DNA of 32,000 nucleotides from Crocosphaera subtropica ATCC 51142 (lineage in GTDB: Bacteria; Cyanobacteriota; Cyanobacteriia; Cyanobacteriales; Microcystaceae): positions 3,120,001 through 3,152,000 of the forward strand of contig NC_010546.1 of NCBI RefSeq assembly GCF_000017845.1, in the 5' to 3' direction. A program made the position numbers and the translations under genes. The notes beneath the pieces are model-generated. The model ran no database searches, was not told the origin of the DNA, and was given only the letters and a program-made list of their open reading frames with translations. Every line of letters starts with the position of its first letter. Position 1 is the stretch's first letter. This document shows, in pieces, positions 7,601 to 29,284 of the stretch.

Positions 7601-10600
7601 AGGATCAATGGGAACATAAGCCCCCCCTGCCTTAAGAATGGCTAAAATAGCGATAATCATGGACAAAGAACGCTCAACACAAAGCCCGATCAACGTATCA
7701 GGTTTCACCCCAAACCGTTGTAAATAGTGAGCTAATTGATTCGCTTTAATATCCAGTTCTTGATAAGTTAATTGTTGCGTTTCATAGATAAGAGCGATCG
7801 CATTTGGGTTGTTTTTAACTTGCACTTCAAAGAGTTCATGTATAGACCCTTCAACACTTCCCCCACTTTCCACTCTCCCCAAAGAAAGCTGCCGTTCCGC
7901 TTCATTGAGTAAAGATAACTCCGAAATGGGTTGTTCTGCGTCCGCAACAATAGAATCTAACAACGTCTCAAAGCATTTGCCTAAGCGAATAATGGTTTCT
8001 TGCTCAAATAAATCCGTATTATATTCCCAACGACCCCTTAACCCCTCTTCTGTCTCCCTCATAGTCAGAGTCAGATCGAATTTTGCAGTGTGATTATCCA
8101 TTTCCAGAGGTTCCCATTGTAACCCTGGCAGTTCAATGGGGTCTAACGGCGTATTTTCTAGGACAAACATCACTTGAAACAGAGGGGTATGGCTGAGCGA
8201 TCGAGGAACTTCTAACGCTTCTAAAAGCCTCTCAAACGGTAAGTCTTGATGACTGTAGGCCCCTAACGCTACCTGTCGCACCTGTTGTAATAAGTCAAGA
8301 AACGTGGGATTACCTGATAAATTAATTCTTAGGGCTAAAGTATTGACAAAAAAGCCGATCAATCCTTCAATTTCACGATAATTACGGTTCGCAATAGGAG
8401 AACCAATAATAATATCCTCACTGTTACTATAACGATGCAGTAACACCGAAAATGCGCTCAACAACAACATAAATAAGGTGGTTCCTGCTTGATGACAAAG
8501 ACGTTGCAAATGTTGGGCTAGGGGTTGGGATAGGGTAAAAGAAGAAGTTGATCCGTGAAAATTTTGCACAGGTGGACGAGGATAATCACAGGGTAATTCT
8601 AGTAAGGTTGGCGCATCTTTTAACTGCTGTTGCCAGTAAGCGAGTTGAGTATCTAATATTTCCCCTTGTAACCATTTTCGTTGCCAGGCTGCAAACTCTA
8701 CATATTGAAAGGGTAATGCTTCGAGGGGTGACGGTTGTTCTTCACAGAAAGCTCGATACAATGTAGCAATTTCTTGCACCAAAATGCCCATTGACCAACC
8801 ATCAGAGACAATATGGTGCATGGTTAATAATAAAATATGCTCTTGTTCTGCTAGACGCAATAATTTCACTCGCAACAGAGGACAATATTCTAAGTTAAAG
8901 GGTTGTTGTGCTTCTTTTTGGGTTAGTTGTGTAACAATTTTTTCTTGTTTTTCAAGAGGAATGAGACTTAAATCAATCAACGGAATAGATAAATCAGTGG
9001 TTTCCGCAATAGTTAGATAAGGTTTGCCTTCTTGAGTCAGAAAACGAGTGCGTAACACTTCATGACGATCAATAACTTTCTGGAAACTACGGGTTAAGGC
9101 AACAATATTGAAACAACCATGTAAACGCAGTGCGATCGCAATATTATAAAAAGGACTATTCGGTTCTAACTGTGATAAAAACCATTGTCGCTGTTGAGCA
9201 AAAGATAAAGGTAACTCGCCATGACGATCTATTTTTTGAAATGATAAAATCTCTTGCTTTCCTTCCCCATCAATAGCATTAGATAAACTTCTAATGGTTG
9301 GTTTTTCAAATAATACCCGTAACGGTAACTCTCTTTCAAACACTTGCCGAACTTGAGACATCACCCGTGTCGCTAACAGAGAATGTCCCCCTAACTCAAA
9401 AAAGTTATCTTCCACACTCACTTGATTCAAATTGAGAATATTAGCCCAAATACCTGCTAAAATTTCCTCTGTTGCTGTTTTTGGTGCGATATAATCTTTA
9501 TGATTTAATTCAATCTCTGGTAAAGCGTTACGATCAATTTTGCCATTAGGGGTTAACGGTAAACTGTCTAACTCTATAAACCTTGACGGAATCATGTAAC
9601 TGGGTAATTTTTCCGCTAAAAAGTCTTTTAGTGGGGGAGTATGGGTAGAGACAATATAAGCAATAAGACTTTCTTCTTTAACAATAACTACTGCTTCTTT
9701 TACTTGAGGATGAGTCAATAATATTGTTTCTATTTCTCCCAATTCTAGGCGAAATCCTCTTAATTTTAGCTGATAATCTGTTCTTCCTAAATATTCTATC
9801 TCTCCATCTTCCCCATACTTAACTAAGTCTCCTGTTTTATATAAACGACTCCCTGCTTTTCCCCCCCTCTCAAGGGGGGTTGAGGGGATCGCCATAAATC
9901 TTTCTGCTGTTAATTTTGGTCTGTTTAAATAGCCTCTAGCTACTCCCATTCCTCCGATATATAATTCTCCTGGTACTCCTATAGGCACTTGATTATAGTC
10001 TTTATCTAACACATAAAATTGTGTGTTATTAATGGGTTTTCCTAACCTAACTTTATCTGAAGTGACTTGATAAACTGATGACCAAATAGTGGTTTCAGTT
10101 GGGCCATATAAGTTCCAAACTGCTCTAGATTTTTGTTGCAGATGTTGCCCTAAACTGGGATCTAATGCTTCTCCCCCACAGAAAATCGTTAAATCTTTTT
10201 TTCCTTCCCACCCTGATGCGAGTAATAGTTTCCAAGTAGCAGGGGTTCCCTGCATGACGGTTACTTGATGGCTTTCTAACTGTTGCCCTAGGGTAACACC
10301 GTCTTGAGCAACAGTACGGGGAACTAAGACTAATTTTGCCCCAACAATAAGGGGTAAATAGAGTTCTAAGGCAGCAATATCAAAGGATAGGGTTGTTACT
10401 GATAATAAAGTATCATCATCAGTTAATCCAGGTTTTTCACTCATCGAAACAAGAAAGTTACTTAACGCACGATGAGGTATTTGTACCCCTTTGGGAATAC
10501 CTGTAGACCCTGATGTATAAATGATATACGCAAGATTGTCTAAGTTGATGTCTACATCGAGATTTGTCTTTTTTTCTTGATTAATTTCTCCTTGTACTTT

Positions 10601-12473: not shown

Positions 12474-13370
12474 TTAAACTGCCCCAACCGTCTCCAAACT
12501 GGTTGGTTTCGATGCCAAGGCTGAAAAGTAAACATCATTTAACTCTGGTTCAACCCCTTGAAACCCATTATTAGGAGATGAGTCGCTGAGCATACGGACA
12601 TATCTTTGTCCCTGTAACATTCGAGAGGTGATCACCGTCCAATTTTTATCGGCTTCTGCTGCTTCAGCTTGACTCATAACTTTCATCCATACTTTGCCCT
12701 GAAGTTGCTGTGTTAACCCCAGAGGACTTCCCTGAGTAATAATTTTTCCTCGGTTTAGAATCGCCATTTGTGGACAAAGCCCGGCCACATCTTCCACAAT
12801 ATGAGTCGATAGAATTAACACCCGATCTTGACTAATTTCTGCTAATAAGTTCTGAAAACGAATCCGTTCAGTGGGGTCAAGGCCAGCCATTGGTTCATCC
12901 ACAATCACCAGTTTTGGCTTTCCCAGTAAAGCCTGAGCAATACCAAACCGTTGACGCATTCCCCCTGAAAATGTCCCTAATTTCTGTTTTCGTTGTTCAT
13001 ACAGATTCACCAGTTGCAACTGATGAGCGACCATTTCTCGCCGTTGACGGGACTGGACAAAGCCTTTAAATACGGCCAGTAAATCTAGCAACTCTTCAGC
13101 AGAAACATTAGGGTAAACTCCAAAGTCTTGAGGGAGATAACCTAACCAACGGCGTGCGGTCTGGGGATTTTGAAAAATATCAACCCCGTCTAATTCAACT
13201 GACCCAGAATCTGCATCTTGTAAGGTTGCCAGGGTACGCATTAAAGTGGATTTTCCGGCTCCATTGGGTCCTAATAACCCAAAAATCCCACAATCAATGG
13301 TTAACGAGATCTCGTGTAAGGCTTGAATGCCATTTTGATAGGTTTTATTTAATTCTTTAATCGTTAACAT
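12474..13370 (-). CDS. ABC transporter ATP-binding protein (ABC-2/DrrA-CcmA-like, with a C-terminal extension).
   Basis: Walker A GPNGAGKST, Q-loop LPQD, signature FSGGMRQR, Walker B LVIVDEPMAGLD, H-loop STHIVED. About 80 aa of extra C-terminal sequence. Confidence 0.9.
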   Translation of the reverse strand: MLTIKELNKTYQNGIQALHEISLTIDCGIFGLLGPNGAGKSTLMRTLATLQDADSGSVELDGVDIFQNPQTARRWLGYLPQDFGVYPNVSAEELLDLLAVFKGFVQSRQRREMVAHQLQLVNLYEQRKQKLGTFSGGMRQRFGIAQALLGKPKLVIVDEPMAGLDPTERIRFQNLLAEISQDRVLILSTHIVEDVAGLCPQMAILNRGKIITQGSPLGLTQQLQGKVWMKVMSQAEAAEADKNWTVITSRMLQGQRYVRMLSDSSPNNGFQGVEPELNDVYFSALASKPTSLETVGAV

Positions 13371-13389: not shown

Positions 13390-14607
13390 TTAATTTCGTT
13401 TCAAGGCAACAATTGGCTCTAAGGCTGCCGCTTGTTTGGCAGGAAACACCCCAAAAAATAGCCCAATGCCACTAGATGTTCCCACAGCGATAATAATGGC
13501 TAAAGGCGATAAATTAGGGGATAAGGGAGAAGCGATGCCAATCAAAGTAATCACACCGCCACCGAGGAAAATTCCGAAGCAACCGCCGACAATCGAGAGA
13601 ATTAACGCTTCAATCAAAAATTGTTGCAAAATATCTCGCTCACTCGCTCCGATCGCTTTACGCAGTCCGATTTCTTGGGTTCGTTCTGTAATGGAGACTA
13701 ACATAATATTCATAATCCCAATACCACCAACCAGCAAAGAAATACCAGCAATCAGAGACAGCATTAAAATAAGTCCTGTGGTAATTTGATCGACGATTTG
13801 TAAAATATCCTTTTGGGTTTCGACATTAAAATCATCTTCCCCCGTAATATTATGCCGTAGTCTGAGCAGATTTTCGATCTGAAATTGGGCTGCCTTAATA
13901 CTATTAGGATCTCTAGCTGAGACAGCAATAAAGGTTACTTGAGTCCCGTAGGGAGAGGTTCGACCGACCAGTTGATTAGCCATGGTGGTTAAGGGAACAT
14001 AAGCAACAAGGTCTTGATTGGTATTGAGAAAAGACCCTTTTGGTTTCATAATGCCAATGACTTCAAAACTCTCTTGTTTAATACGAATTTGTTTTCCGAT
14101 GGCATTTTCTTCTTTAAACAGTCGTTCTTTCAAATCAGGGCCTAAAACGACCACACGGCTATTGCGTTGTAGATCAGGTTCAGAAAAAAATCGTCCTTGA
14201 GCAATTTCATAGTTTCTAACGGTCAAAAAGTCGGGGGTTACGCCAAACACTAACTCCACAGCATTACGACCACGATAGCTAATTAAATCTCGTAGATTAA
14301 GCTGAGGAGCAACCTTAGCCACCGCCGGCACTTGAGAGGCGATCGCTTGAGCATCGGATAAAACTAGGGTTTTGGGTGGTTCTATACTCATATTCCGAGT
14401 GTCTTTAGCACCAGGATTAACAAACAGTACATTGGGGCCTAAGGAATTTAACTGTTCTAAAGCCAATTTTTGACCTGCCTGACCCACTCCTACAATAGAA
14501 ATCACTGAAGCACTACCAATAATAATCCCTAACATGGTTAGTCCACTGCGTTGTTTATTGAGTAGCAAGGTAGCTACAGCCATATTTAATGTTTCTAAGA
14601 TATTCAT
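13390..14607 (-). CDS. MacB/DevC-type ABC permease (MacB periplasmic core domain plus FtsX domain).
   Basis: 405 aa. N-terminal TM (LTMLGIIIGSASVISIV), a large extracytoplasmic domain, and a C-terminal FtsX-type 3-TM bundle with ITERTQEIGLRKAIGA and LEPIVALKRN. The start overlaps the upstream stop as ATGA (14604-14607). Confidence 0.9.
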   Translation of the reverse strand: MNILETLNMAVATLLLNKQRSGLTMLGIIIGSASVISIVGVGQAGQKLALEQLNSLGPNVLFVNPGAKDTRNMSIEPPKTLVLSDAQAIASQVPAVAKVAPQLNLRDLISYRGRNAVELVFGVTPDFLTVRNYEIAQGRFFSEPDLQRNSRVVVLGPDLKERLFKEENAIGKQIRIKQESFEVIGIMKPKGSFLNTNQDLVAYVPLTTMANQLVGRTSPYGTQVTFIAVSARDPNSIKAAQFQIENLLRLRHNITGEDDFNVETQKDILQIVDQITTGLILMLSLIAGISLLVGGIGIMNIMLVSITERTQEIGLRKAIGASERDILQQFLIEALILSIVGGCFGIFLGGGVITLIGIASPLSPNLSPLAIIIAVGTSSGIGLFFGVFPAKQAAALEPIVALKRN

Positions 14608-17048
14608 ACTACAAAATCGATGTCAACAATCATGTCATTGAAATCGTGATCCCCTGCGTTAAAAAATTCTTCAAACCCAAGGGTATTACTATCAATACCA
14701 ATAATATGATCAACTTGATCGGGGTTAGCTTGTCGATAATCGAAGTAAGCAATAGGTCCTAAAATGGGATTGTTATTGATATTGTCAGTGAGAAACTCAT
14801 CGACGGTTCCATCGGCAATCATGAAGGGAGCTAAAATTTTTCGACGATTAGCTGATAAGGTTACTGAATCACTACCACTCCCTTGGACTCCTGCCACTCT
14901 TCGCCGAATGGCGGCCGCTGCATAACCGGGCTCTCCTGGCTGTATGCCGTCAACTTGACCAGTTTCATCGTCTACTTCATAAAAGCCCACAAAGTTATCA
15001 TAAACTGCATCAGCGTTCACGGTAAATTGAACCACGATGTCCTCATCAACTATCCCATCTCCATTAACATCAGCATTACGCAAATCCAAAATCTCTCGCT
15101 GGACACTATCATTTAAGGCGGAGTTTCGAGGAGATGGCTCCTCTGTTATTTCAATACCTAAGATGATATCATCAAAATTTTCTCCATTCTCCCCAGAAAG
15201 CTCAAAATTCAGTTGCAACGGCTCATTAATGTTTCCTGAAGAGGTTCGCACTGGATTGAATCCATTATTAGCCAAGGGTGACGCAAACACAACTTGACTG
15301 TCTGGAGCTTTTTGACTGTTGAGAGTAATTCCACTGAGAATCCCTTCTGTGGTGTTATTTAAAACTGCGTAAAAAGAAATCCTCTGACTACCTGAGAAGT
15401 CTGATAAAATTTGACTGGGATTGGGAAAAACATTGTTAGGTAACTGAGCAAACAGTGGTCTTCCTCGGTTTAAAGCTTCTGTTTGATAATTTTCATCCCC
15501 TGGTTTAACATCAATGATCCCATCCCCATCGGTATCCAACCCTCCCTGATCGTCGTCAACCTCAAATATACCGACTTCAACGGCTCTGGCTAAACTTCCC
15601 CCTAAAAGACGAAACTTAGCATTACTGTTTTGTAAGGGAGAGCCAAGAAACTGCACAATATTGGTTTGCTGATCAAAGCTGAGGGGCAATGTGGAAGCAT
15701 CGGCAAGGGAAAATGTGGCTTGGTTAGTGGCTAAATCAGTAGTATAACCGTCTCCTGGTTCCACCCTAAAACTGACCGTTTCTAAACCTTCTGGGACTCC
15801 ATCGTCAAGAATGGGCAAATCAAGGGTTGCTGTTGTTTCAGTTACGGTGAAAGTAAATCCACTGAGATCCTCATCAACAATGAGAGAATGACCCCCTCTA
15901 ATGCTGGTCTGCTCAAGGTTAAAGTCTGCCAGGCCATTAACCCTATCAGTTCTGACAAACACCGTTAATCCTTCCTTTGGAGGATCTTCAGTCAGGGTTA
16001 AGGTTAGGCTGGCACGGGTTTGCTCGGTTTCAATCAGTAATTCTGGACTACCACTCAATTGAACAATTTGTCCATCGATTTCTCCAGAAGGTGGGGGTGT
16101 TCCAGGGTCCGTTGGAGGTGTTCCAGGGTCCGATTCAGAGATATCGTTAGGGGTATCAGCAAAAGTAACTGTAACAGAACCCCCATTGGGAGCTATGGTA
16201 TAGCCAGACCCCGGTACTAGAGAATAGGTCACATCAAAGGCCCCTTCCCTAATGCCATCAGCAAAAATCGGAGAACTGACACTGGCTACCTGTTCACGAA
16301 TGGTAAAATCAAATCCCGTATTGTCGAAATCAGGAACTGGAAAATCGCCCCCAGATACAGTTACGTTAAAAACATCGATTTGATTTAGGCTTTGAGCCAC
16401 ATTCCCTCTCAGGGTGACTGTTACGCCATTAGCCGGGGGAGGTTCACTGAGTCTAAACCGAAAGACTAGCTGCGTTCCTTGAGATTCAATGAGGGTAGTA
16501 GTCGGAATTTCCAAGCGAACGGTTGGGTCGAAGATTCCGTTATAGGAGTGTTGAACCACTGGAGACAGGACTAACTCATCGACAATTTCTCCAAGGTGAT
16601 AGTTTAAAGACCAATCTCCTCCTTTTTGGGGGTTGCCCACAGGGTTCACTGACGCTGTTAAGGATGTTCTCGTTAGTTGGTGCCAACGGCTCAAAAATTG
16701 TTTTCCGATGGTTCCTGCTGCTACCCGACAGCCATAGAGCGCGACGGAGGTGATCGTTTTTCCCCATTGTTTGAGAGAGAGCGCATGGTCTTCTAAAGAG
16801 GCTAAATTTAGTTGCTGACGGCCAAGATACAAACAGCCAGGAATACCGTGACAGATCAGGTGTAGACTGGTAATACTGGGTTGCTCATTTAACCGTTGGG
16901 TAATCTGTTCAATACTGTCTTGTTGGGGATCAATGACCAGTACCGATGTTGCCTCGGTTACGCCTCTTATGAGTTGTTGGGGGGAGTCCACACCGGGATC
17001 AATAACCGCTAACTTTGTTGGCTCTCCTTTTGAATGATAGTGATTCAT
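14604..17048 (-). CDS. Large DUF4347 / 2x Calx-beta-like / 2x DUF4114 protein with no signal peptide.
   Basis: N-terminal domain: LAVIDPGVDS...SLHLICHGIPGCLYLG...ALYGCRVAAGTIGKQFL...GGDWSLNYHLG (DUF4347 pattern). Two ~110-aa beta-sandwich-like repeats ending in DDGVPEG/ADGIREG (Calx-beta-like). DxDxDG-type loops (DTDGDGIIDV, DVNGDGIVDED). C-terminal FNAGDHDFNDMIVDIDF (DUF4114 pattern). I prefer the MNHYHSKG start at 17048, which has GAGGA about 14 nt upstream. The track start at 17078 would run into the repeat. Confidence 0.8.
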   Translation of the reverse strand: MNHYHSKGEPTKLAVIDPGVDSPQQLIRGVTEATSVLVIDPQQDSIEQITQRLNEQPSITSLHLICHGIPGCLYLGRQQLNLASLEDHALSLKQWGKTITSVALYGCRVAAGTIGKQFLSRWHQLTRTSLTASVNPVGNPQKGGDWSLNYHLGEIVDELVLSPVVQHSYNGIFDPTVRLEIPTTTLIESQGTQLVFRFRLSEPPPANGVTVTLRGNVAQSLNQIDVFNVTVSGGDFPVPDFDNTGFDFTIREQVASVSSPIFADGIREGAFDVTYSLVPGSGYTIAPNGGSVTVTFADTPNDISESDPGTPPTDPGTPPPSGEIDGQIVQLSGSPELLIETEQTRASLTLTLTEDPPKEGLTVFVRTDRVNGLADFNLEQTSIRGGHSLIVDEDLSGFTFTVTETTATLDLPILDDGVPEGLETVSFRVEPGDGYTTDLATNQATFSLADASTLPLSFDQQTNIVQFLGSPLQNSNAKFRLLGGSLARAVEVGIFEVDDDQGGLDTDGDGIIDVKPGDENYQTEALNRGRPLFAQLPNNVFPNPSQILSDFSGSQRISFYAVLNNTTEGILSGITLNSQKAPDSQVVFASPLANNGFNPVRTSSGNINEPLQLNFELSGENGENFDDIILGIEITEEPSPRNSALNDSVQREILDLRNADVNGDGIVDEDIVVQFTVNADAVYDNFVGFYEVDDETGQVDGIQPGEPGYAAAAIRRRVAGVQGSGSDSVTLSANRRKILAPFMIADGTVDEFLTDNINNNPILGPIAYFDYRQANPDQVDHIIGIDSNTLGFEEFFNAGDHDFNDMIVDIDFVV
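16096..16137. repeat. 21-bp tandem duplication (x2) in the linker of the DUF4347 protein.
   Basis: ggtgttccagggtccgttgga / ggtgttccagggtccgattca, encoding DPGTPPT-DPGTPPP. Confidence 0.85.
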
Positions 17049-17077
17049 AGATAATTTTGTTTCCTCACATAAATCCA

Positions 17078-17190
17078 CTTAATGACTCATCATCAAAATT
17101 ATGACGGCAAACCCCTGCTTCCTCTGTTCCCCCTGCTTACCCTACAAGTCATAGTATTCAAAGAGATTTCATATCATATCCCATATCAGT
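17078..17190 (-). repeat. Dispersed ~100-bp intergenic repeat, copy B (inverted relative to copy A).
   Basis: The reverse complement aligns with 1364..1466 (see copy A). It lies 30 nt upstream of the preferred start of the DUF4347 gene. The 17-codon ORF MTANPCFLCSPCLPYKS here and the MTANPSSS... ORF in copy A diverge by frame-breaking indels, so the element is non-coding. Confidence 0.8.
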
Positions 17191-17271: not shown

Positions 17272-18990
17272 TTAACGCACTTGTTTGAGACTTTCGACCT
17301 TGTCAGTAAATAATTCAGTTAACAAACTGATGACGGTGCGTTCTTCTCGTACTTTAATATTAACGCTCACTGACATTCCTGATTGCAAAGGAATCTCTCT
17401 GCCATTGGTTTCGAGTAACTGACTATCTAATTGAACTGTAACGGGAAATCGGTAATAACGATCAATGTCGTCAGGGGGCAGAGCATCAGAGCCAATGGAG
17501 AGGACTTCTCCTTTAATATCCCCAAATTCACTAAAGGGAAAAGAATCAATTCTGACATCGCTTTTCATGCCTTGACGCACAAAGCCAATGTCTTGGTTCG
17601 TGACATTGACCTCTGCGACAAGATGGTCATCAGGAACAATTTTGAGTAGGGGTTCTGTTTGCGATGGAGGGGGGACAAAACCAGGAGAAGCTTGCAGGTC
17701 AAACACCGTTCCAGCAACCGGCGATCGCAATTCTTGATACTTTAAGGTGACTTGGGTGCTACTAATTTGACTATCGAGTTCGGCGATCCGTTTTTCATTA
17801 TCTACCACAATTTTCGTTAGCTGACTGTCAATATCAGCTATCTTTTGTTGATTATCGGCAATTTTATCCCTAATCTCCCTCTCTGCCAACGCAGTGGTAT
17901 TGGTCAGTTGAGCTTGGGCTTGGTTAATCGCCAGTTGCAATCGTTGTTGTTCTTCAAGCAGTTGCTCAATGGCAGCTAAACGATTTTGCACTTGCTGTTG
18001 TTGTTGTTCATATTCGATCGCTCCATTCCCTCGCTGTTCCACTAACGCAGCATAGCGATCATTAACTTGTTGTTGCTGTTCTTTAATCTGAAGTTTAGCG
18101 ATCGCTCCTTCTTCGAGTAACGGGCTAACATCGGCTAAAATTTCTTGTTCAATGCGTAAACTTTCTCTGGCTTGGGCTTGAGCCAATTGATTGCGAACAT
18201 TAATGTCTTCTAGCACTTGTTTATCTTTAGCCAATTGTACCCTTGCGTCTGCTAGTTGCACTTGATTTTGATTCAGTTGCTTCTGCAATTTTTGCACTTC
18301 TAACTGAGCAGTCGTAGCTCTAGAAACCACCTCGGTTCTTGTGGCTTGCAGTCTAGCCAATTGTTCTGGGGATAGGCTTAAGGCTTGGGTTCCCTCATTA
18401 ACCAGTCCTTCAAACAGACGAGTTTCCCCCACCAGGGAGGTACGGTTTCGAGCCAAATCAGCCACTTCTTTCGGTAATTTAAGTCTTGCGATCGCCTGTT
18501 CAACTTTAGCAGCGTCTAAGGACTGCTCCATCAGGGTTTGATAAAATTTATTTTCCTGTTGCAAAGTCTGGCGAATTTTTTTAAAGGAGGCTAATTGAGC
18601 AGTGGATGCAGTGGAGTCGAGTTTCAGTAACAATTGATTCTTCTTAACCCGTTCTCCATCTTCAACATAAACTTCTTGCACCACGCCATTGACAGGGGAC
18701 TGAATTTCTTTGACGCTTCCTTGGGGCTTTAATTGTCCTTGGGCCGGGATCACTTGCTCAATCTTCGCCACATTGGCCCAAACCAAACCGATAGTTGTCA
18801 CCCCTAAAATCGCACCAACCACAGCCCTTGACCAATGAGGGGTTTGTCTCAACATCACAGACCGATCAAAGCTGCGTTTAGGAGAAAACCGTCTGAGGGG
18901 CCAAGTAGATGACGGCGGAGAATCCAAAGAAGGGCTTATTGGTTCTTCAGATTGGGGACTATTACTAAGGTCATTTTGATAGCGATTCAT
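17272..18990 (-). CDS. HlyD-family type I secretion periplasmic adaptor.
   Basis: 572 aa. A single N-terminal TM (AVVGAILGVTTIGLVWA), a lipoyl-like motif (VKEIQSPVNGVVQEVYVEDGERVKKNQLLLKLD), a very long Q/L/A-rich coiled coil, and a C-terminal beta-barrel segment (GMSVSVNIK). Confidence 0.9.
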   Translation of the reverse strand: MNRYQNDLSNSPQSEEPISPSLDSPPSSTWPLRRFSPKRSFDRSVMLRQTPHWSRAVVGAILGVTTIGLVWANVAKIEQVIPAQGQLKPQGSVKEIQSPVNGVVQEVYVEDGERVKKNQLLLKLDSTASTAQLASFKKIRQTLQQENKFYQTLMEQSLDAAKVEQAIARLKLPKEVADLARNRTSLVGETRLFEGLVNEGTQALSLSPEQLARLQATRTEVVSRATTAQLEVQKLQKQLNQNQVQLADARVQLAKDKQVLEDINVRNQLAQAQARESLRIEQEILADVSPLLEEGAIAKLQIKEQQQQVNDRYAALVEQRGNGAIEYEQQQQQVQNRLAAIEQLLEEQQRLQLAINQAQAQLTNTTALAEREIRDKIADNQQKIADIDSQLTKIVVDNEKRIAELDSQISSTQVTLKYQELRSPVAGTVFDLQASPGFVPPPSQTEPLLKIVPDDHLVAEVNVTNQDIGFVRQGMKSDVRIDSFPFSEFGDIKGEVLSIGSDALPPDDIDRYYRFPVTVQLDSQLLETNGREIPLQSGMSVSVNIKVREERTVISLLTELFTDKVESLKQVR

Positions 18991-19032
18991 CGTAGGTTGT
19001 CTTTCCTTTCAATCTAGATACGTTTAATTTTG

Positions 19033-22000
19033 TTATTGTGAGACACGCTTCATCGATTTCTGTTTATTGTATAAAGCGTAGTAATGTTTTTTTCGCCTCA
19101 TTAAGTCTCCATGAGTCCCCTGCTCGACAATTTGGCCTGCTTCGAGCATGACAATCACATCTGCTGATTGCACTGAATTGAGACGGTGAGTGACAAAGAA
19201 AACCGTACAGTCTCGAAAGGCTTGGCTTAGATTCTTAAATACTTTTTGTTCTGTTTCATAGTCCAAGGCACTGGTGGCTTCATCCAAAACCAACAGCCGT
19301 GGCTTTTGCAATACAGTGCGAGCAATGGCAATGCGCTGTCGCTGTCCTCCTGAAAGAGTTGCTCCTCGTTCTCCCACCTTTGTGTCATAACCGTTGGGTA
19401 AGTTCATAATAAATTCGTGGGCTTCTGCAACTTGGGCTGCTTCAATAATTTCCTCTGACGAGGCTTCTGGATTCGCTAAAGCAATATTATCCCAAATGGT
19501 TCCCTCAAACAATAGGGAGTTTTGCAGTACCACCCCAATTTGACGACGCAGGGAATAAATTTCGACTTTGCCGATGTCATAGCCATCGATAAAAATCGCC
19601 CCTGAGTCGGGTTCGTACAGTCGAGATAATAACTTGGTGAGGGTACTTTTGCCGGCTCCGCTCGAACCAATAATGGCTGTAAAGGTGCCTGGGGCTAATT
19701 CGAGGTTAATGTCTTGTAATTGCCAAGGACCGTAAGATTGGAAGCGAAAGGAAACCCCTTGGTATTTCACTGCACCTTGGATTAAGGGCATGGGGATATT
19801 TCGGCGATCGCGTTCTGATTCTTGGGGGGTATCGGCAATATCGGCTAATCTTTCCAGGGAGAGGGCGGTTTCTTGGAAGTTTTGCCACAGTTGGCTTAAC
19901 CGTAGAATAGGAGAGGTCACATAACCGGCAATAATCCGAAAGGCGATCAATGCGCCTAGGGTTAATTCTCCTTCAAGAACTAAATAAGCCCCCACCCAAA
20001 TCACCAGTAAGCCTGAGACTTTATTCAAAAACTGCGTCCCCGCATTGGCCAAATTGGAGGTAATTACGGTTCTAAAACCAGTGGTCACATAACGAGCATA
20101 GCGTTCTTGCCATTCTTCACGCAGTTGATTTTCAATATTTTGGGCTTTGACGGTTTGTACCCCAGAGAGAACTTCTACTAAATGGGATTGGGTTTCGGCG
20201 TGACGTTGGGCTTTGAGTCGTAACTGTCGGCGAATGATGGGAGACACCAGTAAGGTTAGTCCCATAAATAGGGGAATGATACTCAAAGAAACCAGGGTTA
20301 ATAAGGGGCTATAAACGATCATCACCCCTAGATAAATAATAGAAAAAACCGCATCTAAGACCACGGTTAAGGCGGTTCCTGTCAAAAAGCGACGCACCCG
20401 TTCTAATTCATTAATACGAGTGGCAATTTCTCCGACGGGTTGTTTTTCAAAATAACTCAAGGGTAGCCGTAGCAAATGGTCAATCATTTCTGACCCAAGG
20501 CTCATATCAATGCGATTGCTGGTATCGGTAAATAAATAGGTTCTTAATGCAGATAGTAAAGCTTCAAAGATAGCCACGATGAGGAGAAAAACCCCCAATA
20601 CTTGTAGAGTGGCTGCGCTATTTTGGATAATGACTTTATCAATGATGACCTGAATCATCAAGGGATTGGCCAAGGCGAACAATTGCACAAAAAATGAGGC
20701 AATCAAGACTTCGATTAACACTCGACGATAACGGACAACGGAGGGCAAAAACCAACGGAGATCAAAGTGTTCACGGGGAGTATGACGAGGAGGAGATAAT
20801 AGCAACACCTCTTGTTCCGACTCTTGCCAATCTTCGGGTAAGTCTGCCAATGGCCAATGGAGAATCCCCTGTTGAGGAACCCCAAGAATTAGGTTGTGAC
20901 GGGTGATCTCATAAACGATCGCCAGGCTTCCTTGCCAATGAATTAAAAAAGGGGTGTGCAAGCGAGGGAACACATAGCCAGGAACCGTCATTTGTTGGGG
21001 ATTAAGTTCCATCAATTCCGCAATTATTCCACATCCCATCAAAGAAAGATGACTATGACGTTTCAACTGCTCGACTAAGATGCGTTGAATCACTTCCCGA
21101 CGAAAGGGGATATGGAAATAGAGACTGAGCATTTGAAAACAGGCAATCCCTATCTGTAAGGGGTTATTTCCTTGGACATAGGGGTAATTTCTCGGTAAAT
21201 TAGTCCTTCGTAACTCCCTAGGAATTTCTTGATAGTTGGCAATAAATTCCACTTCAGGGATGAGATAGGATTGTTTTGAGGGTACCATTGTTCCTGGGGC
21301 TGTTCCTTCCCCCATAGCCACCTCTGCTAACTGTCTCTCTTCTACGGCTAGTTGCACCGCAGGAACCCCCACTAACCGAACGGGTTCTGTGCCTTCTACC
21401 TCAATATGTTGCCAGGGTTGAAACCTGAGACAGCTACCCACAGGACAATTAGGGATTTTTCCTCCACTACTAATTAACCAACTTTGTTGAGGGTTATGTA
21501 AGTGAGGATGTTCGGCATAGAGTGATTCTCCTGGGGGTAAGTAGTAAATTTGAGTTTCTTCAAGGGCTAGGGCTGCTAAGGCTTTGAGATCGGTTTCTCC
21601 TTGAGCTTGTTGGGTTAGTTGATAACCCATTAATTCAAACAGTTCCACCAAGGCACAGCGATCGCATAGTTCTGCTTGTAAACTTGGATATTGTTCTAAA
21701 TATTCCTGAAAATCCCCCTCATCTACCATTAAACCAATGATTTCCGTTGAGGCAATGGCTGTCTCACAGCCGATCCCCCTGGCCAAATTCACCCAACCCA
21801 AAATTGACCCTGGCCCCACGATTTCTAAGGTAACAAACTGTTGGTTACAAGGATTAAACCCCAGAGTTCGTGCTTGTCCTTGGTATAGGATGACAATATA
21901 GGGAAGTTCCTCGTCTTTTCTAAAGATGACTTCTCCCATCGGATAACGAACAGGACGGACTCTTTGGGCTAACGCTGCGATCGCCGTTGGGGGAAGTTCT

Positions 22001-22056
22001 CCAAAAATGGGGTGTTTACTAAGAAATAATGTTATTTGTGGGATCAGGGAATTCAT
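19033..22056 (-). CDS. ABC exporter with an N-terminal cNMP-binding-like domain and a C39-like domain (HetC/bacteriocin-exporter architecture).
   Basis: 1007 aa. Residues ~15-125 have a CAP-effector-like fold pattern. Residues ~290-410 are C39-like (..LQIGIACFQMLSLYFHIPF...PFLIHWQGSLAIVYEI..). Six-TM ABC_membrane region. NBD with Walker A GSSGAGKST, signature LSGGQRQRIAIAR, Walker B LLVLDEATSALD, H-loop VTHRL. Confidence 0.9.
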   Translation of the reverse strand: MNSLIPQITLFLSKHPIFGELPPTAIAALAQRVRPVRYPMGEVIFRKDEELPYIVILYQGQARTLGFNPCNQQFVTLEIVGPGSILGWVNLARGIGCETAIASTEIIGLMVDEGDFQEYLEQYPSLQAELCDRCALVELFELMGYQLTQQAQGETDLKALAALALEETQIYYLPPGESLYAEHPHLHNPQQSWLISSGGKIPNCPVGSCLRFQPWQHIEVEGTEPVRLVGVPAVQLAVEERQLAEVAMGEGTAPGTMVPSKQSYLIPEVEFIANYQEIPRELRRTNLPRNYPYVQGNNPLQIGIACFQMLSLYFHIPFRREVIQRILVEQLKRHSHLSLMGCGIIAELMELNPQQMTVPGYVFPRLHTPFLIHWQGSLAIVYEITRHNLILGVPQQGILHWPLADLPEDWQESEQEVLLLSPPRHTPREHFDLRWFLPSVVRYRRVLIEVLIASFFVQLFALANPLMIQVIIDKVIIQNSAATLQVLGVFLLIVAIFEALLSALRTYLFTDTSNRIDMSLGSEMIDHLLRLPLSYFEKQPVGEIATRINELERVRRFLTGTALTVVLDAVFSIIYLGVMIVYSPLLTLVSLSIIPLFMGLTLLVSPIIRRQLRLKAQRHAETQSHLVEVLSGVQTVKAQNIENQLREEWQERYARYVTTGFRTVITSNLANAGTQFLNKVSGLLVIWVGAYLVLEGELTLGALIAFRIIAGYVTSPILRLSQLWQNFQETALSLERLADIADTPQESERDRRNIPMPLIQGAVKYQGVSFRFQSYGPWQLQDINLELAPGTFTAIIGSSGAGKSTLTKLLSRLYEPDSGAIFIDGYDIGKVEIYSLRRQIGVVLQNSLLFEGTIWDNIALANPEASSEEIIEAAQVAEAHEFIMNLPNGYDTKVGERGATLSGGQRQRIAIARTVLQKPRLLVLDEATSALDYETEQKVFKNLSQAFRDCTVFFVTHRLNSVQSADVIVMLEAGQIVEQGTHGDLMRRKKHYYALYNKQKSMKRVSQ

Positions 22057-22077
22057 TCTTAATAAGAATTATTCTTA
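22055..22077. promoter_or_regulatory. Array of three alternating ATTCTTA / TAAGAAT half-sites abutting the ABC exporter start codon (candidate operator).
   Basis: ATTCTTA (22055-61), TAAGAAT (22063-69), ATTCTTA (22071-77), forming two overlapping perfect palindromes. The same half-site recurs at 29453-29458, 29474-29484 and 29496-29502. Confidence 0.3.
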
Positions 22078-22233
22078 ATTTTTTCGTAAAACTAACGGAC
22101 ATTTGGGTTATGAGGACTGGGTTTGATTGATCTGTTAGTGAGTACAGATACTATGGTTCCTCAATGATTTTAAATGATTCAAGAATTAGGGTATGATAAC
22201 AAACTTTTGCAGTAAGTGTCACAAGAACTGCTA

Positions 22234-25199: not shown

Positions 25200-25333
25200 T
25201 TTTTATCTCTTCAAAATCCTAAAGCAGATACCACAAAATTAGCAAGAGAAATTGATGAGTATTGTATGAATGGTATGAGTTTAATGAGAAGGAGATTGCT
25301 ATAATTGAACAAGCTACTCATAGGAAAAACTAA
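25200..25333 (+). pseudogene. Frameshifted C-terminal remnant of a restriction-modification-type (type IIG/Eco57I/BREX-like) methyltransferase.
   Basis: One frame reads ..LSLQNPKADTTKLAREIDE up to 25259. After 2 nt, a second frame reads LYEWYEFNEKEIAIIEQATHRKN* (25262-25333). Joined, this reproduces the conserved tail pattern aDt..le.eID.lvY.LY.lt.eEI.iiE. The TAA overlaps the hicB ATG (TAATG). The 5' limit is uncertain. Confidence 0.45.
25300..25305 (+). promoter_or_regulatory. Possible -10 box (TATAAT) for hicBA.
   Basis: A perfect TATAAT lies 28 nt upstream of the hicB ATG. The only -35 candidate is weak (GAGTTT at 17-nt spacing). Confidence 0.3.
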
Positions 25334-25548
25334 TGACTCAATCCTTTAATGTCATTATCGAAAAAGATTCGGACGGTTACTTAGTCGCATCTGTTCCCAG
25401 TTTAAAAGGATGTCATACACAAGCTAAAAGTTATGACGAGTTAATAGAACGTATTCAAGAAGCCATTGAACTTTGCTTAGAAATGGAAAACGAAGAATTT
25501 GAACCTTTAGAATTTATTGGGGTACAACGAGTAACTATTAAACAATGA
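25333..25548 (+). CDS. hicB: HicB-family antitoxin (UPF0150).
   Basis: 71 aa. FNVIIEKDSDGYLVASVPSLKGCHTQAKSYDELIERIQEAIELCLE is the HicB N-terminal fold signature. It overlaps hicA by 4 nt (ATGA). Confidence 0.85.
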   Translation: MTQSFNVIIEKDSDGYLVASVPSLKGCHTQAKSYDELIERIQEAIELCLEMENEEFEPLEFIGVQRVTIKQ

Positions 25549-25769
25549 GTAATATTCCAGCAGTTACAGGCAAGAAAATGATTTCAGCCTTAAAAAAAGC
25601 AGGTTTTATTGTGGCTAGAGTTAAGGGAAGTCATCATTTTCTAATCCATTCCGATGGGAGAAGAACGGTTATTCCAGTTCATGGTAAAGAAACGATAGGG
25701 AAAGGCTTATTTGCTCAAATTTTACGAGATTGTGAGTTAACTGTTAATGAGTTTATCGATTTACTGTAG
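25545..25769 (+). CDS. hicA: HicA-family mRNA interferase toxin.
   Basis: 74 aa. GKKMISALKKAGFIVARVKGSHHFLIHSDGRRTVIPVHGKETIGKGLFAQILRD matches the YcfA/HicA pattern, including the GSHH catalytic His region. Confidence 0.85.
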   Translation: MSNIPAVTGKKMISALKKAGFIVARVKGSHHFLIHSDGRRTVIPVHGKETIGKGLFAQILRDCELTVNEFIDLL

Positions 25770-25831: not shown

Positions 25832-27541
25832 TCAGGAGAGGGGATCACGTGATCCGAAAAACTCCCATGTGCCTTTTTTCTCTAGTTTCAAAACCTGTTG
25901 ATGGTATTTTAATAGACTCGAACGATGACCGACACTAATAAAAGTAATTGAGGTATTTTGTAGCTGTTGATAAAGCTGTTCTTCATTGTTACTATCTAAG
26001 GCACTGGTGGCTTCATCTAAAATGGCATAATCGGGTTCAATGACAAATAAACGGGCAAAGGCTAAACGTTGTTGTTCTCCGAGAGATAACACTTTTGTCC
26101 AATCTTCTACTGCATCTAACCCCCCAAATTTATGGTGAAGATCGGGTAAGTTTACCCGTTGTAAAAGGTTGAGAAGTTTCTCATCTTTTACCTGGCTATC
26201 AATGTTAGGATAAAGCAATTGAGTTCGCAACGATCCCATTGGCATATAGGGACGTTGAGGTAAAAATAATAATTGTTGCCGTTGAGGGCGTTTGATCGTT
26301 CCCTTTCCTGATCGCCAAAGTCCTCCTAATGCTCTTAATAAGGAACTTTTTCCTACCCCACTGTCCCCCATAATTAATAAACTTTGAACAGACTGCAAAC
26401 TGAGGGACAAGTTTTTAATTAATGTCTTTTGATAGTCAGGGGTATTTAACGTTAATTTCTCGATGCTTAGATCCGATGATTCCAGGGTTTTAATGGTACT
26501 ATTTTCATTAACAGATGTGTCAGGAGATTTTTTAAAAAACCAGAATAAACTATCTATCCGTTGGATACCTGAGCCTAAAGCACTTAATTGTTCAAACTGA
26601 GTCACAATTAAGGTTAAAGCGATTAAAATACTTCTAAATGCTGTTGCTGCTTTACTAAATTCCCCAATTTCTAAGTCTCCTGATAAAATTCGTGGTGCAA
26701 GAAGCAACCCAGGTAATAAAAAAGTAATATATTGATAACCATTTTGAAATAAGTTTAAATTCAACTGCCAACGAATTAAATGATTAAAGTTATTAAAAAC
26801 AGCTAAAAATCGTTGTTGGATTTGCTGTAACTCTTGGTCTTGTCCTTGATAAAAAGCAATGGCTTCGGCGTTTTCTCTCACTCGCACTAAGCTAAACCGA
26901 AAGTTTGCTTCTCGTTTGAGTTGTTCAAAATTAATCCCTACTAAAATGCGCCCAAAAACAACCACGGTAACAAGGGTTCCTCCAATGGCATAAATTAGCA
27001 AAAAACTCGTCAAAACCTGAGAAATAGCCCACAAAACTCCAATAAACCCCAATAATTGAAGAATTGAATCAAACATGATTACTAAAAAATTCAGAGACTG
27101 TTGGGTAAACGTTTTAATATCCTCAGCAATGCGTTGATCGGGATTATCTAATTCGGGATAAAAAGTCATTTGATAATAATCTTGATCCTTTAAATAACGA
27201 TCTAAAACATTAAAGGTTAACCAACGTCGCCAGTATAAACTCAGTTTCCCTTGGATAAAACTTTTGGCAGACAAAAGAGGAACACCGATAACAATAATAC
27301 CGATAAAGATAATAATGGATTGAGTAAATCTTCCCGACTCACCACTGGCTAAAGAAGACGTTACTTCTCCCAAAAAAATACTAAAAAGAATTAATAACAC
27401 TGCTCCTAAAAATGATAGTAACAACAACAAAAATAATAAAGTAATTGCCCCCCATTTTTCCTCAGAAAACCAATAAGGTTTAGCAATTTCCCAAAATTGT
27501 CGCCACCATCGCAAATTCCATCGTCTCACAGTAGTTTTCAT
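25832..27541 (-). CDS. ABC half transporter, ABCD/SbmA-BacA (ABC_membrane_2) family, copy 1.
   Basis: 569 aa. PYWFSEEKWGA, YYQM...LDNPDQRIAEDIKTFTQQ and ENAEAIAFYQGQ are hallmarks of the ABCD/YddA/SbmA-type TMD. NBD motifs: GDSGVGKSS, LSLGEQQRLAFARL, AILDEATSALD, SVGHR. Confidence 0.85.
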   Translation of the reverse strand: MKTTVRRWNLRWWRQFWEIAKPYWFSEEKWGAITLLFLLLLLSFLGAVLLILFSIFLGEVTSSLASGESGRFTQSIIIFIGIIVIGVPLLSAKSFIQGKLSLYWRRWLTFNVLDRYLKDQDYYQMTFYPELDNPDQRIAEDIKTFTQQSLNFLVIMFDSILQLLGFIGVLWAISQVLTSFLLIYAIGGTLVTVVVFGRILVGINFEQLKREANFRFSLVRVRENAEAIAFYQGQDQELQQIQQRFLAVFNNFNHLIRWQLNLNLFQNGYQYITFLLPGLLLAPRILSGDLEIGEFSKAATAFRSILIALTLIVTQFEQLSALGSGIQRIDSLFWFFKKSPDTSVNENSTIKTLESSDLSIEKLTLNTPDYQKTLIKNLSLSLQSVQSLLIMGDSGVGKSSLLRALGGLWRSGKGTIKRPQRQQLLFLPQRPYMPMGSLRTQLLYPNIDSQVKDEKLLNLLQRVNLPDLHHKFGGLDAVEDWTKVLSLGEQQRLAFARLFVIEPDYAILDEATSALDSNNEEQLYQQLQNTSITFISVGHRSSLLKYHQQVLKLEKKGTWEFFGSRDPLS

Positions 27542-27574
27542 AATAATAAACTAAAGATACCGTAAACCCTGTCA

Positions 27575-29284
27575 CTATCTAGAGGGACTTAACCGCCACC
27601 CCTTTTCTCCTTTTAGTTCTAAAACTTGGTGATGATACTTAAATAAAGTTGCACGATGACCGACACTAACAAAGGTTATGGATAACCCTGTCAGTTGTTC
27701 ATACAAAAAAGCTTCATTGGCTTCATCAAGCGCACTGGTTGCCTCATCTAAGATTACATATTTTGGTTTAATTAGCCATAAACGAGCAAAGGCCAAGCGT
27801 TGTTGTTCTCCTGGGGAAAGAATTTGGGTCCAGTTCATAACTTCCTCAAAAGACGTAACTCGATTGATTAAGCCTTCTAAATTAACAAAGTTAAGAATCT
27901 TTAGCAACTGTTGATCGCTTATTTCCTTAGCCGAATTCGGATAAAATAGTTGATGACGCAAGGAACCCACTGGTAAATAGGGACGTTGGGGCAAAAATAG
28001 CATTTCTTCCCGTCTCGGTAGAGCGATCGCTCCGGTTCCACAATGCCATAACCCTGCCATTGAGCGCAATAAAGAGCTTTTTCCGACCCCACTATCACCA
28101 ATAATTAATAAAGATTGACCCAAGGAAATGTTTAGAGAAATATCTTTGATCAGGGTTCTTTGATAATTAGGGGTAAATAGGGTAATATTTTTTAGAGTTA
28201 AGTTCTCACTTTCTTGGATATTAATACTAGGATAATCCCTATTTTGACCAGAAATTGACCATTTTTCTAAGGTCGCTAAGCGATTAACACTCGCTGCAAA
28301 AACACTTAATTTATCAAACTGATTAATCACTAGACTTAAGGAAAAGCCAATACGTTCAAAAGCTGCTTGAGATTGGGTTACAGCCCCGATTTCTAGTTCT
28401 CCTGAAAAGAGACGGGGAGCCAAAACTATAAAGGGAAGAATAAATGTCAAATATTGATAGCCATTTTGAAAAAGATTAAGATTAAATTGCCAACGCAATA
28501 AACGATTAAAATTTTGAAAGGCTTCTATAAATTGCTGTTTAATGTGTTTCTTCTCAGGATTTTGTCCTTGATAAAAGGCAATAGCTTCAGCATTTTCTCG
28601 AATCCTAACCAACCCAAATCGAAAATCTGCTTCTCGTTTTAATTGTTCAATATTAATCCGAGTTAAAACACGACCAAAAGCAATGATAACAAATCCCGTT
28701 CCTAAAACGGCATAAGCTAACAAAAAAAACATTAATGCTTTAGAAACTGACCAGAGAAGAATAGTAAATCCAATAAGTTGTACAATAGAATCTAAAAAAG
28801 TGGTAAAAAAATAGATAGATTGTTGTGTAAAAACTTTAATATCTTCACTAATACGCTGATCGGGATTATCTAGTCTCTCATCTAAACTTAAATGATAGAA
28901 TTTATTCTCAGTAAAATATTCAGATAAAAAATAATGGGTTAGCCATCGTCGCCAATAAAGACTTAACTGATTTTGAACATATTGGTTAAATGCCAAGGAG
29001 GGAACTCCCAAGATAATTAAGCCTAAAAATATCAAAACAGCTTGAAAAAAACGTTGATAACTTCCCGATACAAGGGCAGAAATAAACTCGCCCCGTTGTA
29101 AACTTTCTAACACTAAAAAGATACTACTACTGAATGATAGCAATAAGACTAAACAGAATAGTCCCCTAGCTCCCCATTTTTCCTCAGAAAACCAGTAAGG
29201 GAAAGCCACTAAGTAACTTTGCTGAATTATTTGACGAGCTAATTTTTGTATTCGTTTTCGCCAAGATTGCTGATGGTTAAGCAT
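27575..29284 (-). CDS. ABC half transporter, ABCD/SbmA-BacA (ABC_membrane_2) family, copy 2.
   Basis: 569 aa, a paralogue of the neighbouring gene (roughly half of residues identical by eye). Motifs: PYWFSEEKWGA, LDNPDQRISEDIKVFTQQ, ENAEAIAFYQGQ, GDSGVGKSS, LSPGEQQRLAFARL, VILDEATSALD, SVGHR. Confidence 0.85.
   Translation of the reverse strand: MLNHQQSWRKRIQKLARQIIQQSYLVAFPYWFSEEKWGARGLFCLVLLLSFSSSIFLVLESLQRGEFISALVSGSYQRFFQAVLIFLGLIILGVPSLAFNQYVQNQLSLYWRRWLTHYFLSEYFTENKFYHLSLDERLDNPDQRISEDIKVFTQQSIYFFTTFLDSIVQLIGFTILLWSVSKALMFFLLAYAVLGTGFVIIAFGRVLTRINIEQLKREADFRFGLVRIRENAEAIAFYQGQNPEKKHIKQQFIEAFQNFNRLLRWQFNLNLFQNGYQYLTFILPFIVLAPRLFSGELEIGAVTQSQAAFERIGFSLSLVINQFDKLSVFAASVNRLATLEKWSISGQNRDYPSINIQESENLTLKNITLFTPNYQRTLIKDISLNISLGQSLLIIGDSGVGKSSLLRSMAGLWHCGTGAIALPRREEMLFLPQRPYLPVGSLRHQLFYPNSAKEISDQQLLKILNFVNLEGLINRVTSFEEVMNWTQILSPGEQQRLAFARLWLIKPKYVILDEATSALDEANEAFLYEQLTGLSITFVSVGHRATLFKYHHQVLELKGEKGWRLSPSR

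Follow-up and report, generated by a model that had tools for sequence, protein, structure and literature searches.

What does an ABC (ATP-binding cassette) exporter carry when its peptidase-like domain and its sensor-like domain both seem to have lost their key residues? The question is raised by a gene at 19033-22056 of a 32,000-nucleotide stretch of Crocosphaera subtropica ATCC 51142 (contig NC_010546.1, positions 3,120,001 to 3,152,000; hereafter the window). The gene is a single intact open reading frame (ORF) on the minus strand (22056→19033, with its ATG at 22056), and its 1007-aa product matches exactly ACB52408.1 / cce_3060 of C. subtropica (formerly Cyanothece), which is recorded as "toxin secretion ABC transporter ATP-binding protein". 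Our answer, to which we give a probability of roughly 70%, is that cce_3060 serves as the ABC subunit, in the inner membrane, for type I secretion of the hemolysin kind and is a paralogue in a family that appears to include Synechocystis Sll1180, that the nearby cce_3058 is its most likely cargo, and that its N-terminal cyclic-nucleotide-binding (CNB) module is regulatory.

The order of domains that the original prediction had described (a cyclic-nucleotide (cNMP) domain, a C39 domain and an ABC exporter) is real, as in a profile check all of them passed the Pfam gathering scores. The cNMP_binding family (PF00027) covers residues 36-123 (34.1 bits vs a cut-off of 27.5), Peptidase_C39 (PF03412) residues 291-412 (30.2 bits vs 22), ABC_membrane (PF00664) residues 447-716 (197 bits) and ABC_tran (PF00005) residues 780-929 (121 bits). 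The six-helix transmembrane domain (residues 447-716, 19909..20718, minus strand, like all features of the gene) is spanned entirely by the alignment to HlyB. The ATPase domain (residues 780-1000, 19057..19719) has all its motifs intact: Walker A (GSSGAGKS), signature (LSGGQ), Walker B (LLVLDE) and H-loop (FFVTHR).

We asked whether the C39-like domain (residues 289-421, 20794..21192) could still act as a peptidase. Its catalytic positions were mapped from three independent alignments: a MAFFT alignment that took in two relatives with the canonical C39 motif (DCGAAC … H … DP), an alignment of the family profile with PCAT1, and an hhalign comparison with the N-terminus of E. coli HlyB, the sequence of which was verified at 100% identity against an E. 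coli plasmid gene. Conservation was read from 53 family representatives, one per 50%-identity cluster, each with both N-terminal domains. The oxyanion Gln position is Gly296 in cce_3060, and 41 of the 53 representatives have Gly there. The position of the nucleophile Cys is Ile302 in all three alignments, which is the residue that the original prediction had placed there, and this column is variable with no Cys in any representative. The catalytic His corresponds to Leu378 (Ser377 by the HMMER alignment); column 378 holds Phe, Leu, Pro, Tyr, Ile or Val across the family and His in none of the 53, while three of them have His at the neighbouring column 377. The catalytic Asp corresponds to Val393 (in LGVPQQG), again in a variable column, so that the predicted loss of both His and Asp is also borne out by structure and profile alignments. 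Because all four catalytic positions are substituted, cce_3060 cannot cleave a leader peptide, in keeping with its earlier description as a non-processing exporter, and the survey of orthologues that had been proposed alongside that description shows the catalytic loss to be family-wide.

The fold of this domain is predicted to have outlived its chemistry. The family C39-like profile matched the PCAT1 peptidase domain (4RY2/7N87) with an E-value of 8e-8, and an AlphaFold model of residues 286-432 alone reached a confidence score (pLDDT) of 90.9. With this model Foldseek found the peptidase domains of PCAT1, LahT and ComA at a TM score of about 0.7, the C39-like domain (CLD) of HlyB (3ZUA) at 0.62-0.64 and HlyB 7SGR at 0.65. 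In sequence the relation to the HlyB CLD was marginal: hhalign aligned it to the family profile weakly but completely (probability 41%), and hmmsearch with the family profile gave no match to it even at E ≤ 10. A search of the PDB with the N-terminal 440 aa as a single sequence returned CNB domains only, and the C39-like domain required the family profile. Sequence and model together indicate a papain-like fold that is retained with its catalytic chemistry gone.

The membrane and ATPase parts place the exporter more directly. The NCBIfam model of HlyB-type type I secretion, TIGR01846, matched residues 303-1000 over model positions 1-693 of 694 with 731.3 bits, a small margin over its cut-off of 725.55. 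Neither the model of peptide-cleaving exporters, TIGR01193 (386.9 bits vs a cut-off of 523.85), nor TIGR03796 (425.3 vs 853.3) was passed, so the assignment in the original prediction to HetC-like and bacteriocin exporters does not stand. In phmmer searches HlyB (7SGR/8DCK) matched residues 429-997 with E 5e-170, and over the membrane and ATPase parts HlyB scored 570 bits, PCAT1 330 bits (~1e-97) and ComA 294 bits (~1e-86). Such exporters split into a peptidase-active and a C39-like class, and the domain binds substrate in both (PMC10986499). Could cce_3060 nevertheless export a bacteriocin or signal peptide, as pumps of the PCAT or HetC kind do, from a precursor encoded elsewhere that a different protease cleaves or that is exported whole? 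The three-part architecture is that of HetC (PMC10986499), and the C39-like profile is nearer to PCAT1 than to the HlyB CLD. We nevertheless hold this to be very unlikely, given the loss of every catalytic position (with Cys lost in 53 of 53 representatives), the scores far below the cut-offs of TIGR01193 and TIGR03796 where TIGR01846 is passed, and membrane and ATPase parts far nearer to HlyB than to PCAT1 or ComA. In addition, Sll1180, which appears to belong to the family, is reported, in papers that cite the original study, to export an S-layer protein of the 1,700-aa class. When all six frames of the window were searched for ORFs of 25-150 aa, none of the 558 candidate starts carried a double-glycine leader. 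The original prediction had likewise seen no such gene nearby; this absence is no puzzle and is expected for a HlyB-type pump, since a C39-like domain without Cys is the rule in this class.

How far do these features extend? A pattern scan for the C39-like domain, built on a 12-sequence subset and covering one genome per species, found the exporter family in at least 584 cyanobacterial species-level loci, and the gene neighbourhoods below were compared in the best 80 of these, all from cyanobacteria or cyanobacteria-like metagenome-assembled genomes. cce_3060 shows the domain order of the family and its motifs G-W…R…P-C-E-T-A-I-A-S, A-C-F-Q-M and W-Q-D-S-[LF]-A. A relative with 37% identity over the N-terminal 445 aa (P0019) clusters with the Synechocystis PCC 6803 protein BAA18265.1 ('HlyB family', 1011 aa), and the exporter family appears to include Sll1180, which we take this entry to be. 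The altered domains of cce_3060 are what is normal for a large cyanobacterial family of type I secretion pumps that is already annotated and in part characterised. Within this family, cce_3060 is a lineage-restricted paralogue, separate from the main Sll1180-like orthologue group. More than 70% identity to it was found only in L001, L002 and P0001, so that the paralogue group of the window is rare. In 61 of the 80 loci (within L003-L080) the exporter gene is directly preceded, about 1 kb upstream and in the same orientation, by a gene for a PpiC-type peptidyl-prolyl isomerase (~257 aa; e.g. L031:8307-9077). This isomerase could be a partner conserved in the main Sll1180-like group; in the window it is absent and a major facilitator superfamily (MFS) gene takes that upstream position.

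This rarity, together with the state of two close relatives, bears on whether cce_3060 could be a decaying, functionless paralogue under relaxed selection. In Crocosphaera watsonii (P0002-P0005, 750 aa) residues 1-284 of the exporter run on in the same frame into the HlyD adaptor, and the C39-like, membrane and ATPase parts are deleted (corresponding to 17272-22056 of the window); with these parts gone, the paralogous secretion system of C. watsonii is decaying. In Crocosphaera sp. Alani8 (L002), a close orthologue, the adaptor is no longer adjacent and the neighbours are different. The gene of the window, however, has kept its 1007-codon frame and its ATPase motifs, the AlphaFold models of both altered domains are confident, and the substitutions are shared family-wide at 25-40% identity, including the Synechocystis member that has been studied. 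As the substitutions are common to the whole family, they are ancestral and do not reflect recent decay, and we consider a functionless cce_3060 the least probable of the readings weighed here.

We also asked whether the sensor-like module is idle. Residues 1-150 (21607..22056) form a predicted CNB-fold domain: the family CNB profile matched the CNB domains of PKG, PKA and CRP with E-values of 1e-20 to 1e-15, the AlphaFold (AF2) model of these residues had a pLDDT of 76-91, and Foldseek matched the N-terminal model to CNB structures (e.g. 4qx5, TMt 0.88). The phosphate-binding cassette (residues 87-103, 21748..21798) reads LGW88VNLAR93GIGC97E98TAIAS and in the model makes a short helix (88-93) and a strand (99-102), as in a canonical cassette. 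Trp88 takes the place of the canonical Glu, and where the canonical Arg would stand some alignments give Cys97 and others a deletion, which agrees with the earlier reading that both residues contacting cNMP are lost. Among the 53 relatives the canonical Glu is present in two, and Arg at columns 97/98 in none. What stands in their place is itself conserved: G87 in 52, W88 in 33, R93 in 43, C97 in 39, E98 in 46, A102 in 50 and S103 in 41 of the 53, with E98 without exception in a 31-sequence alignment. The family motif, G-W…R…C-E-T-A-x-A-S, is among the best-conserved stretches of the N-terminus. Since Gly87, Arg93, Cys97, Glu98, Ala102 and Ser103 are retained at an overall identity of only 25-40%, the pocket appears to be under selection, a remodelled site and no relic; the original prediction had called the domain an orphan, a term at odds with this conservation. 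Its ligand is probably something other than cAMP or cGMP, judging from the cassette residues. A guanine nucleotide or (p)ppGpp, as reported for HetC, is a candidate by analogy; alternatively, the pocket could be a fixed contact with another domain.

The CNB-fold domain is followed by a second, small beta domain (residues 157-236, 21349..21588), the strands of which were modelled with a pLDDT of 81-89. It has a conserved W-L-x-S-G-G…P-V-G-S…R-L-V-G motif in which W193, S196, G207 and R227 are nearly invariant, and it matched no Pfam family. Foldseek aligned the N-terminal model with tandem CNB-A/B proteins over ~260 columns, with a high root-mean-square deviation, and on this model residues 157-236 may be a truncated second CNB-like domain. 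Conservation and the analogy with HetC suggest that the two domains probably regulate the pump rather than being idle. Between them and the C39-like domain lies a disordered acidic linker (residues 239-288, 21193..21342), with a pLDDT below 50 and a sequence and length that differ among homologues. A protein search with the CNB profile gave 10 fragments, and HetC was not among them. In one metagenomic relative (P0037, 1137 aa) the similarity takes in the CNB-like module and the first part of the C39-like domain but ends directly behind LACFQM, where an unrelated P-loop protein takes over; either two genes have fused or the assembly is chimeric.

If cce_3060 is a HlyB-type pump, what could be its cargo? 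The original prediction had given none, and a candidate is encoded two genes downstream. cce_3058 (14604..17078, minus strand) encodes an 824-aa protein with an N-terminal DUF4347 domain (162 bits) and a DUF4114 domain (46 bits) that ends at residue 822 of 824. The protein has an isoelectric point of 4.16, no hydrophobic N-terminal segment and two DxDxDG loops, which are of the type that binds calcium. Its C-terminus (GDHDFNDMIVDIDFVV, ending in …DMIVDIDFVV) is acidic and then hydrophobic. In every DUF4114 protein met in the loci compared, this domain stood at the extreme C-terminus, with a core of …FGFED…GGDxDFND… and an end that is likewise acidic and then hydrophobic. DUF4114 is reported to bind Ca2+ (PMC12058595), and a DUF4114 protein of Synechocystis, Slr0168, is reported to be secreted (PMC4675711). 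The trio of exporter, adaptor and a DUF4347…DUF4114 protein recurred in two of the 80 loci, one closely related (L001) and one distant (L010). In the Prochloron-type loci L019, L048 and L072 a DUF4114-ending protein precedes the exporter; the one in L019 also contains cadherin repeats and a sub-threshold match to RTX (repeats-in-toxin), and in L072 an RTX/cadherin ORF lies directly upstream of the DUF4114 ORF. In L061 an RTX nuclease/5'-nucleotidase follows the adaptor. We propose cce_3058 as the most likely cargo of the cce_3060 pump on the basis of its sequence and gene order, because it is acidic, lacks a Sec signal, ends in DUF4114 and belongs to a trio that recurs in two other loci. With E ≤ 1 as the limit, Pfam matched nothing in residues 201-741 (14856-16478, minus strand) of cce_3058; visual inspection of this 540-aa middle part gives the unconfirmed impression of two repeats, each of ~110 aa and resembling a Calx-beta-like beta sandwich. 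A search with its DUF4347 among word-indexed proteins gave three matches.

Between exporter and candidate cargo lies cce_3059 (17272..18990, minus strand), which starts 42 nt downstream of the exporter and encodes a 572-aa periplasmic adaptor of the HlyD family (PF13437, 75.5 bits), as the original prediction had noted. An adaptor homologue follows the exporter in 39 of the 80 loci. On the same strand, cce_3059 is followed by cce_3058 (after a gap of 193 nt), a DevC-like MacB-type permease gene (13390-14607; Pfam MacB_PCD, FtsX), a DevA-like ATPase gene (12474-13370; Pfam ABC_tran), a gene for a 2558-aa non-ribosomal peptide synthetase (NRPS) and then the genes for ExbB, ExbD, TonB and one MFS protein. 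cce_3058 and devC overlap by 4 nt, the stop of the one with the start of the other, and L001 has the same gene order; no separate DevB/MacA adaptor gene accompanies devC and devA, which are both on the minus strand. This DevC/DevA-like pair may be part of the exporter operon or of an NRPS cluster, and may share the HlyD adaptor or serve the NRPS.

This setting invites another answer, that the pump and the DevC/DevA-like MacB-type transporter jointly export an NRPS product (a peptide siderophore or lipopeptide) and share the single HlyD adaptor. The exporter genes do lie between NRPS genes (4694-12370 and 30637-31884), with TonB/ExbB/ExbD, two MFS exporters and two SbmA/BacA-type ABC genes nearby; the adaptor-less devC and devA are translationally coupled to cce_3058; and according to one paper a cyanobacterial siderophore leaves the cell through HlyB-HlyD-TolC (PMC11171426). 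On the other hand, C39-like and HlyB-type membrane domains are known to handle proteins, an NRPS neighbour occurs in only one of the 80 loci, and the close orthologue in Alani8 has different neighbours. In L010 the trio has no NRPS within 10 kb, being flanked by a mandelate racemase-type (enolase superfamily) enzyme, a GDSL lipase and RecJ. Nor was a Fur box convincing upstream of cce_3060, where the best match to the E. coli Fur consensus (12/19) lies in an AT-rich stretch and is equalled by many sites in the window, so that we discounted it as a sign of iron control. We therefore regard export of an NRPS product as unlikely. The original prediction had placed the exporter inside an NRPS cluster; NRPS genes do flank it, but because the trio recurs in the NRPS-free L010, the setting is probably incidental.

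Type I export of cce_3058 could then proceed as follows, by analogy with HlyB. The C39-like domain would hold unfolded cce_3058 in the cytoplasm, and ATP hydrolysis would move the cargo C-terminus first through an ABC–HlyD–TolC channel, in which cce_3059 would be the adaptor and the TolC-type outer-membrane partner would be encoded elsewhere. Outside the cell, calcium would fold the exported cce_3058. The CNB-like module would control the pump through a ligand other than cAMP or cGMP. More speculatively, secretion might be gated by this ligand: the remodelled pocket (Trp88/Arg93/Cys97/Glu98) would sense a non-cyclic signal, either (p)ppGpp/GTP or redox through Cys97, and switch the pump, and the C-terminal DUF4114 would be a secretion and calcium-folding tag for a cargo without RTX repeats. 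We offer this extension tentatively, as an idea that may well prove wrong.

Several observations weigh against type I export of cce_3058 by cce_3060. Proteins exported by pumps that carry a C39-like domain are usually marked by RTX nonapeptide repeats, and no canonical repeat (GGxGxDxUx) was present in cce_3058 or in any other ORF of the window. As the trio was found in only two of the 80 loci, the link to the cargo comes from few and partly related genomes, and a candidate exoprotein of any kind lay nearby in about 10 of the 80. The best NCBIfam match of the adaptor, TIGR01843 (type_I_hlyD), scored 186.9 bits, below the cut-off of 208.65. None of the 17 ORFs of at least 100 aa in the window encoded a TolC-type or outer-membrane efflux domain; the TolC-type partner is often encoded elsewhere in the HlyB-type class. 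The genes themselves have NRPS, TonB/ExbBD and MacB-type genes around them. For cce_3058, cce_3059 and cce_3060 a search of the literature brought up no paper. Finally, that BAA18265.1 is Sll1180 is our inference from its name, its length and the annotation of Synechocystis.

Two other features of the window lie close to the exporter. An AT-rich near-palindrome (TTAAGAATAATTCTTATTAAGA, 22057-22090, minus strand) touches its ATG and agrees with the E. coli Fur consensus at only 12 of 19 positions, and a promoter-like site lies upstream (22222→22193); a scan of promoters and terminators gave total counts near those in shuffled sequence, so we did not use this site as evidence. Further upstream, on the opposite (plus) strand, genes for a HicB-like antitoxin (71 aa) and a HicA toxin (74 aa) at 25333-25769 lie between the block of Suc_Fer-like, MFS and exporter genes and the tandem SbmA/BacA-type ABC genes (25832-29284).

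What follows from this for the annotation of such pumps? The public label "peptidase domain-containing ABC transporter" wrongly implies a processing bacteriocin exporter, and cce_3060 is better read as a HlyB/Sll1180-type pump, for which a candidate cargo can now be named. How type I secretion is regulated through the pump itself is still little understood, and hundreds of cyanobacterial species carry this conserved, non-canonical CNB-fold module. A search of the literature found no paper that brings together a cyclic nucleotide-binding domain, HlyB and type I secretion in cyanobacteria, and the link to ppGpp has so far been reported only for HetC, a peptidase-active relative. A conserved non-canonical sensor pocket together with a candidate DUF4114-tagged cargo seems worth following. 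Since Crocosphaera/Cyanothece 51142 is a model diazotroph, a known exporter–cargo pair could also aid the engineering of protein secretion.

Finally, we compared cce_3060 with the systems that it most resembles. Like E. coli HlyB (7SGR, 8DCK, 3ZUA), with which its membrane and ATPase parts align end to end, it has a HlyD partner, passes TIGR01846 and carries a papain fold without the Cys, its Ile302 aligning with Tyr9 of HlyB. Unlike HlyB, it has ~285 extra N-terminal residues (the CNB-fold domain, the small beta domain and the linker), its candidate cargo is without RTX nonapeptides, and the similarity in the C39-like sequence is marginal. HlyB also retains His83 and Asp100 where cce_3060 has Leu378 and Val393, so that the family of cce_3060 is more stripped than HlyB. 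PCAT1, ComA and LahT provide the best structural and profile matches of the C39-like domain, whereas these proteins hold the Gln/Cys/His/Asp set and process double-glycine leaders; cce_3060 has none of the four residues and falls below TIGR01193.

In HetC of Nostoc sp. PCC 7120, which we compared through its published description, the three modules follow each other in the order seen in cce_3060. The cNMP-type domain of HetC binds neither cAMP nor 2-oxoglutarate but does bind ppGpp (Kd 59 uM) and GTP in vitro, and it is required in vivo, and its active peptidase (Cys347/His420) is needed for function (PMC10986499). HetC thus differs from cce_3060 in its active peptidase, and also in having no adjacent adaptor gene. 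Also among the closest known systems are Sll1180 and Sll1181, which are described, in two papers citing Agarwal et al. 2018, as HlyB and HlyD analogues that export the S-layer protein Sll1951 (PMC11171426, PMC11594277). cce_3060 is a separate paralogue of Sll1180, without the upstream PpiC-type gene and with a candidate cargo adjacent. It shares with the protein taken to be Sll1180 (1011 aa) the architecture and length, the PCETAIAST cassette, the ACFQM and WQDSLA motifs and a HlyD partner.

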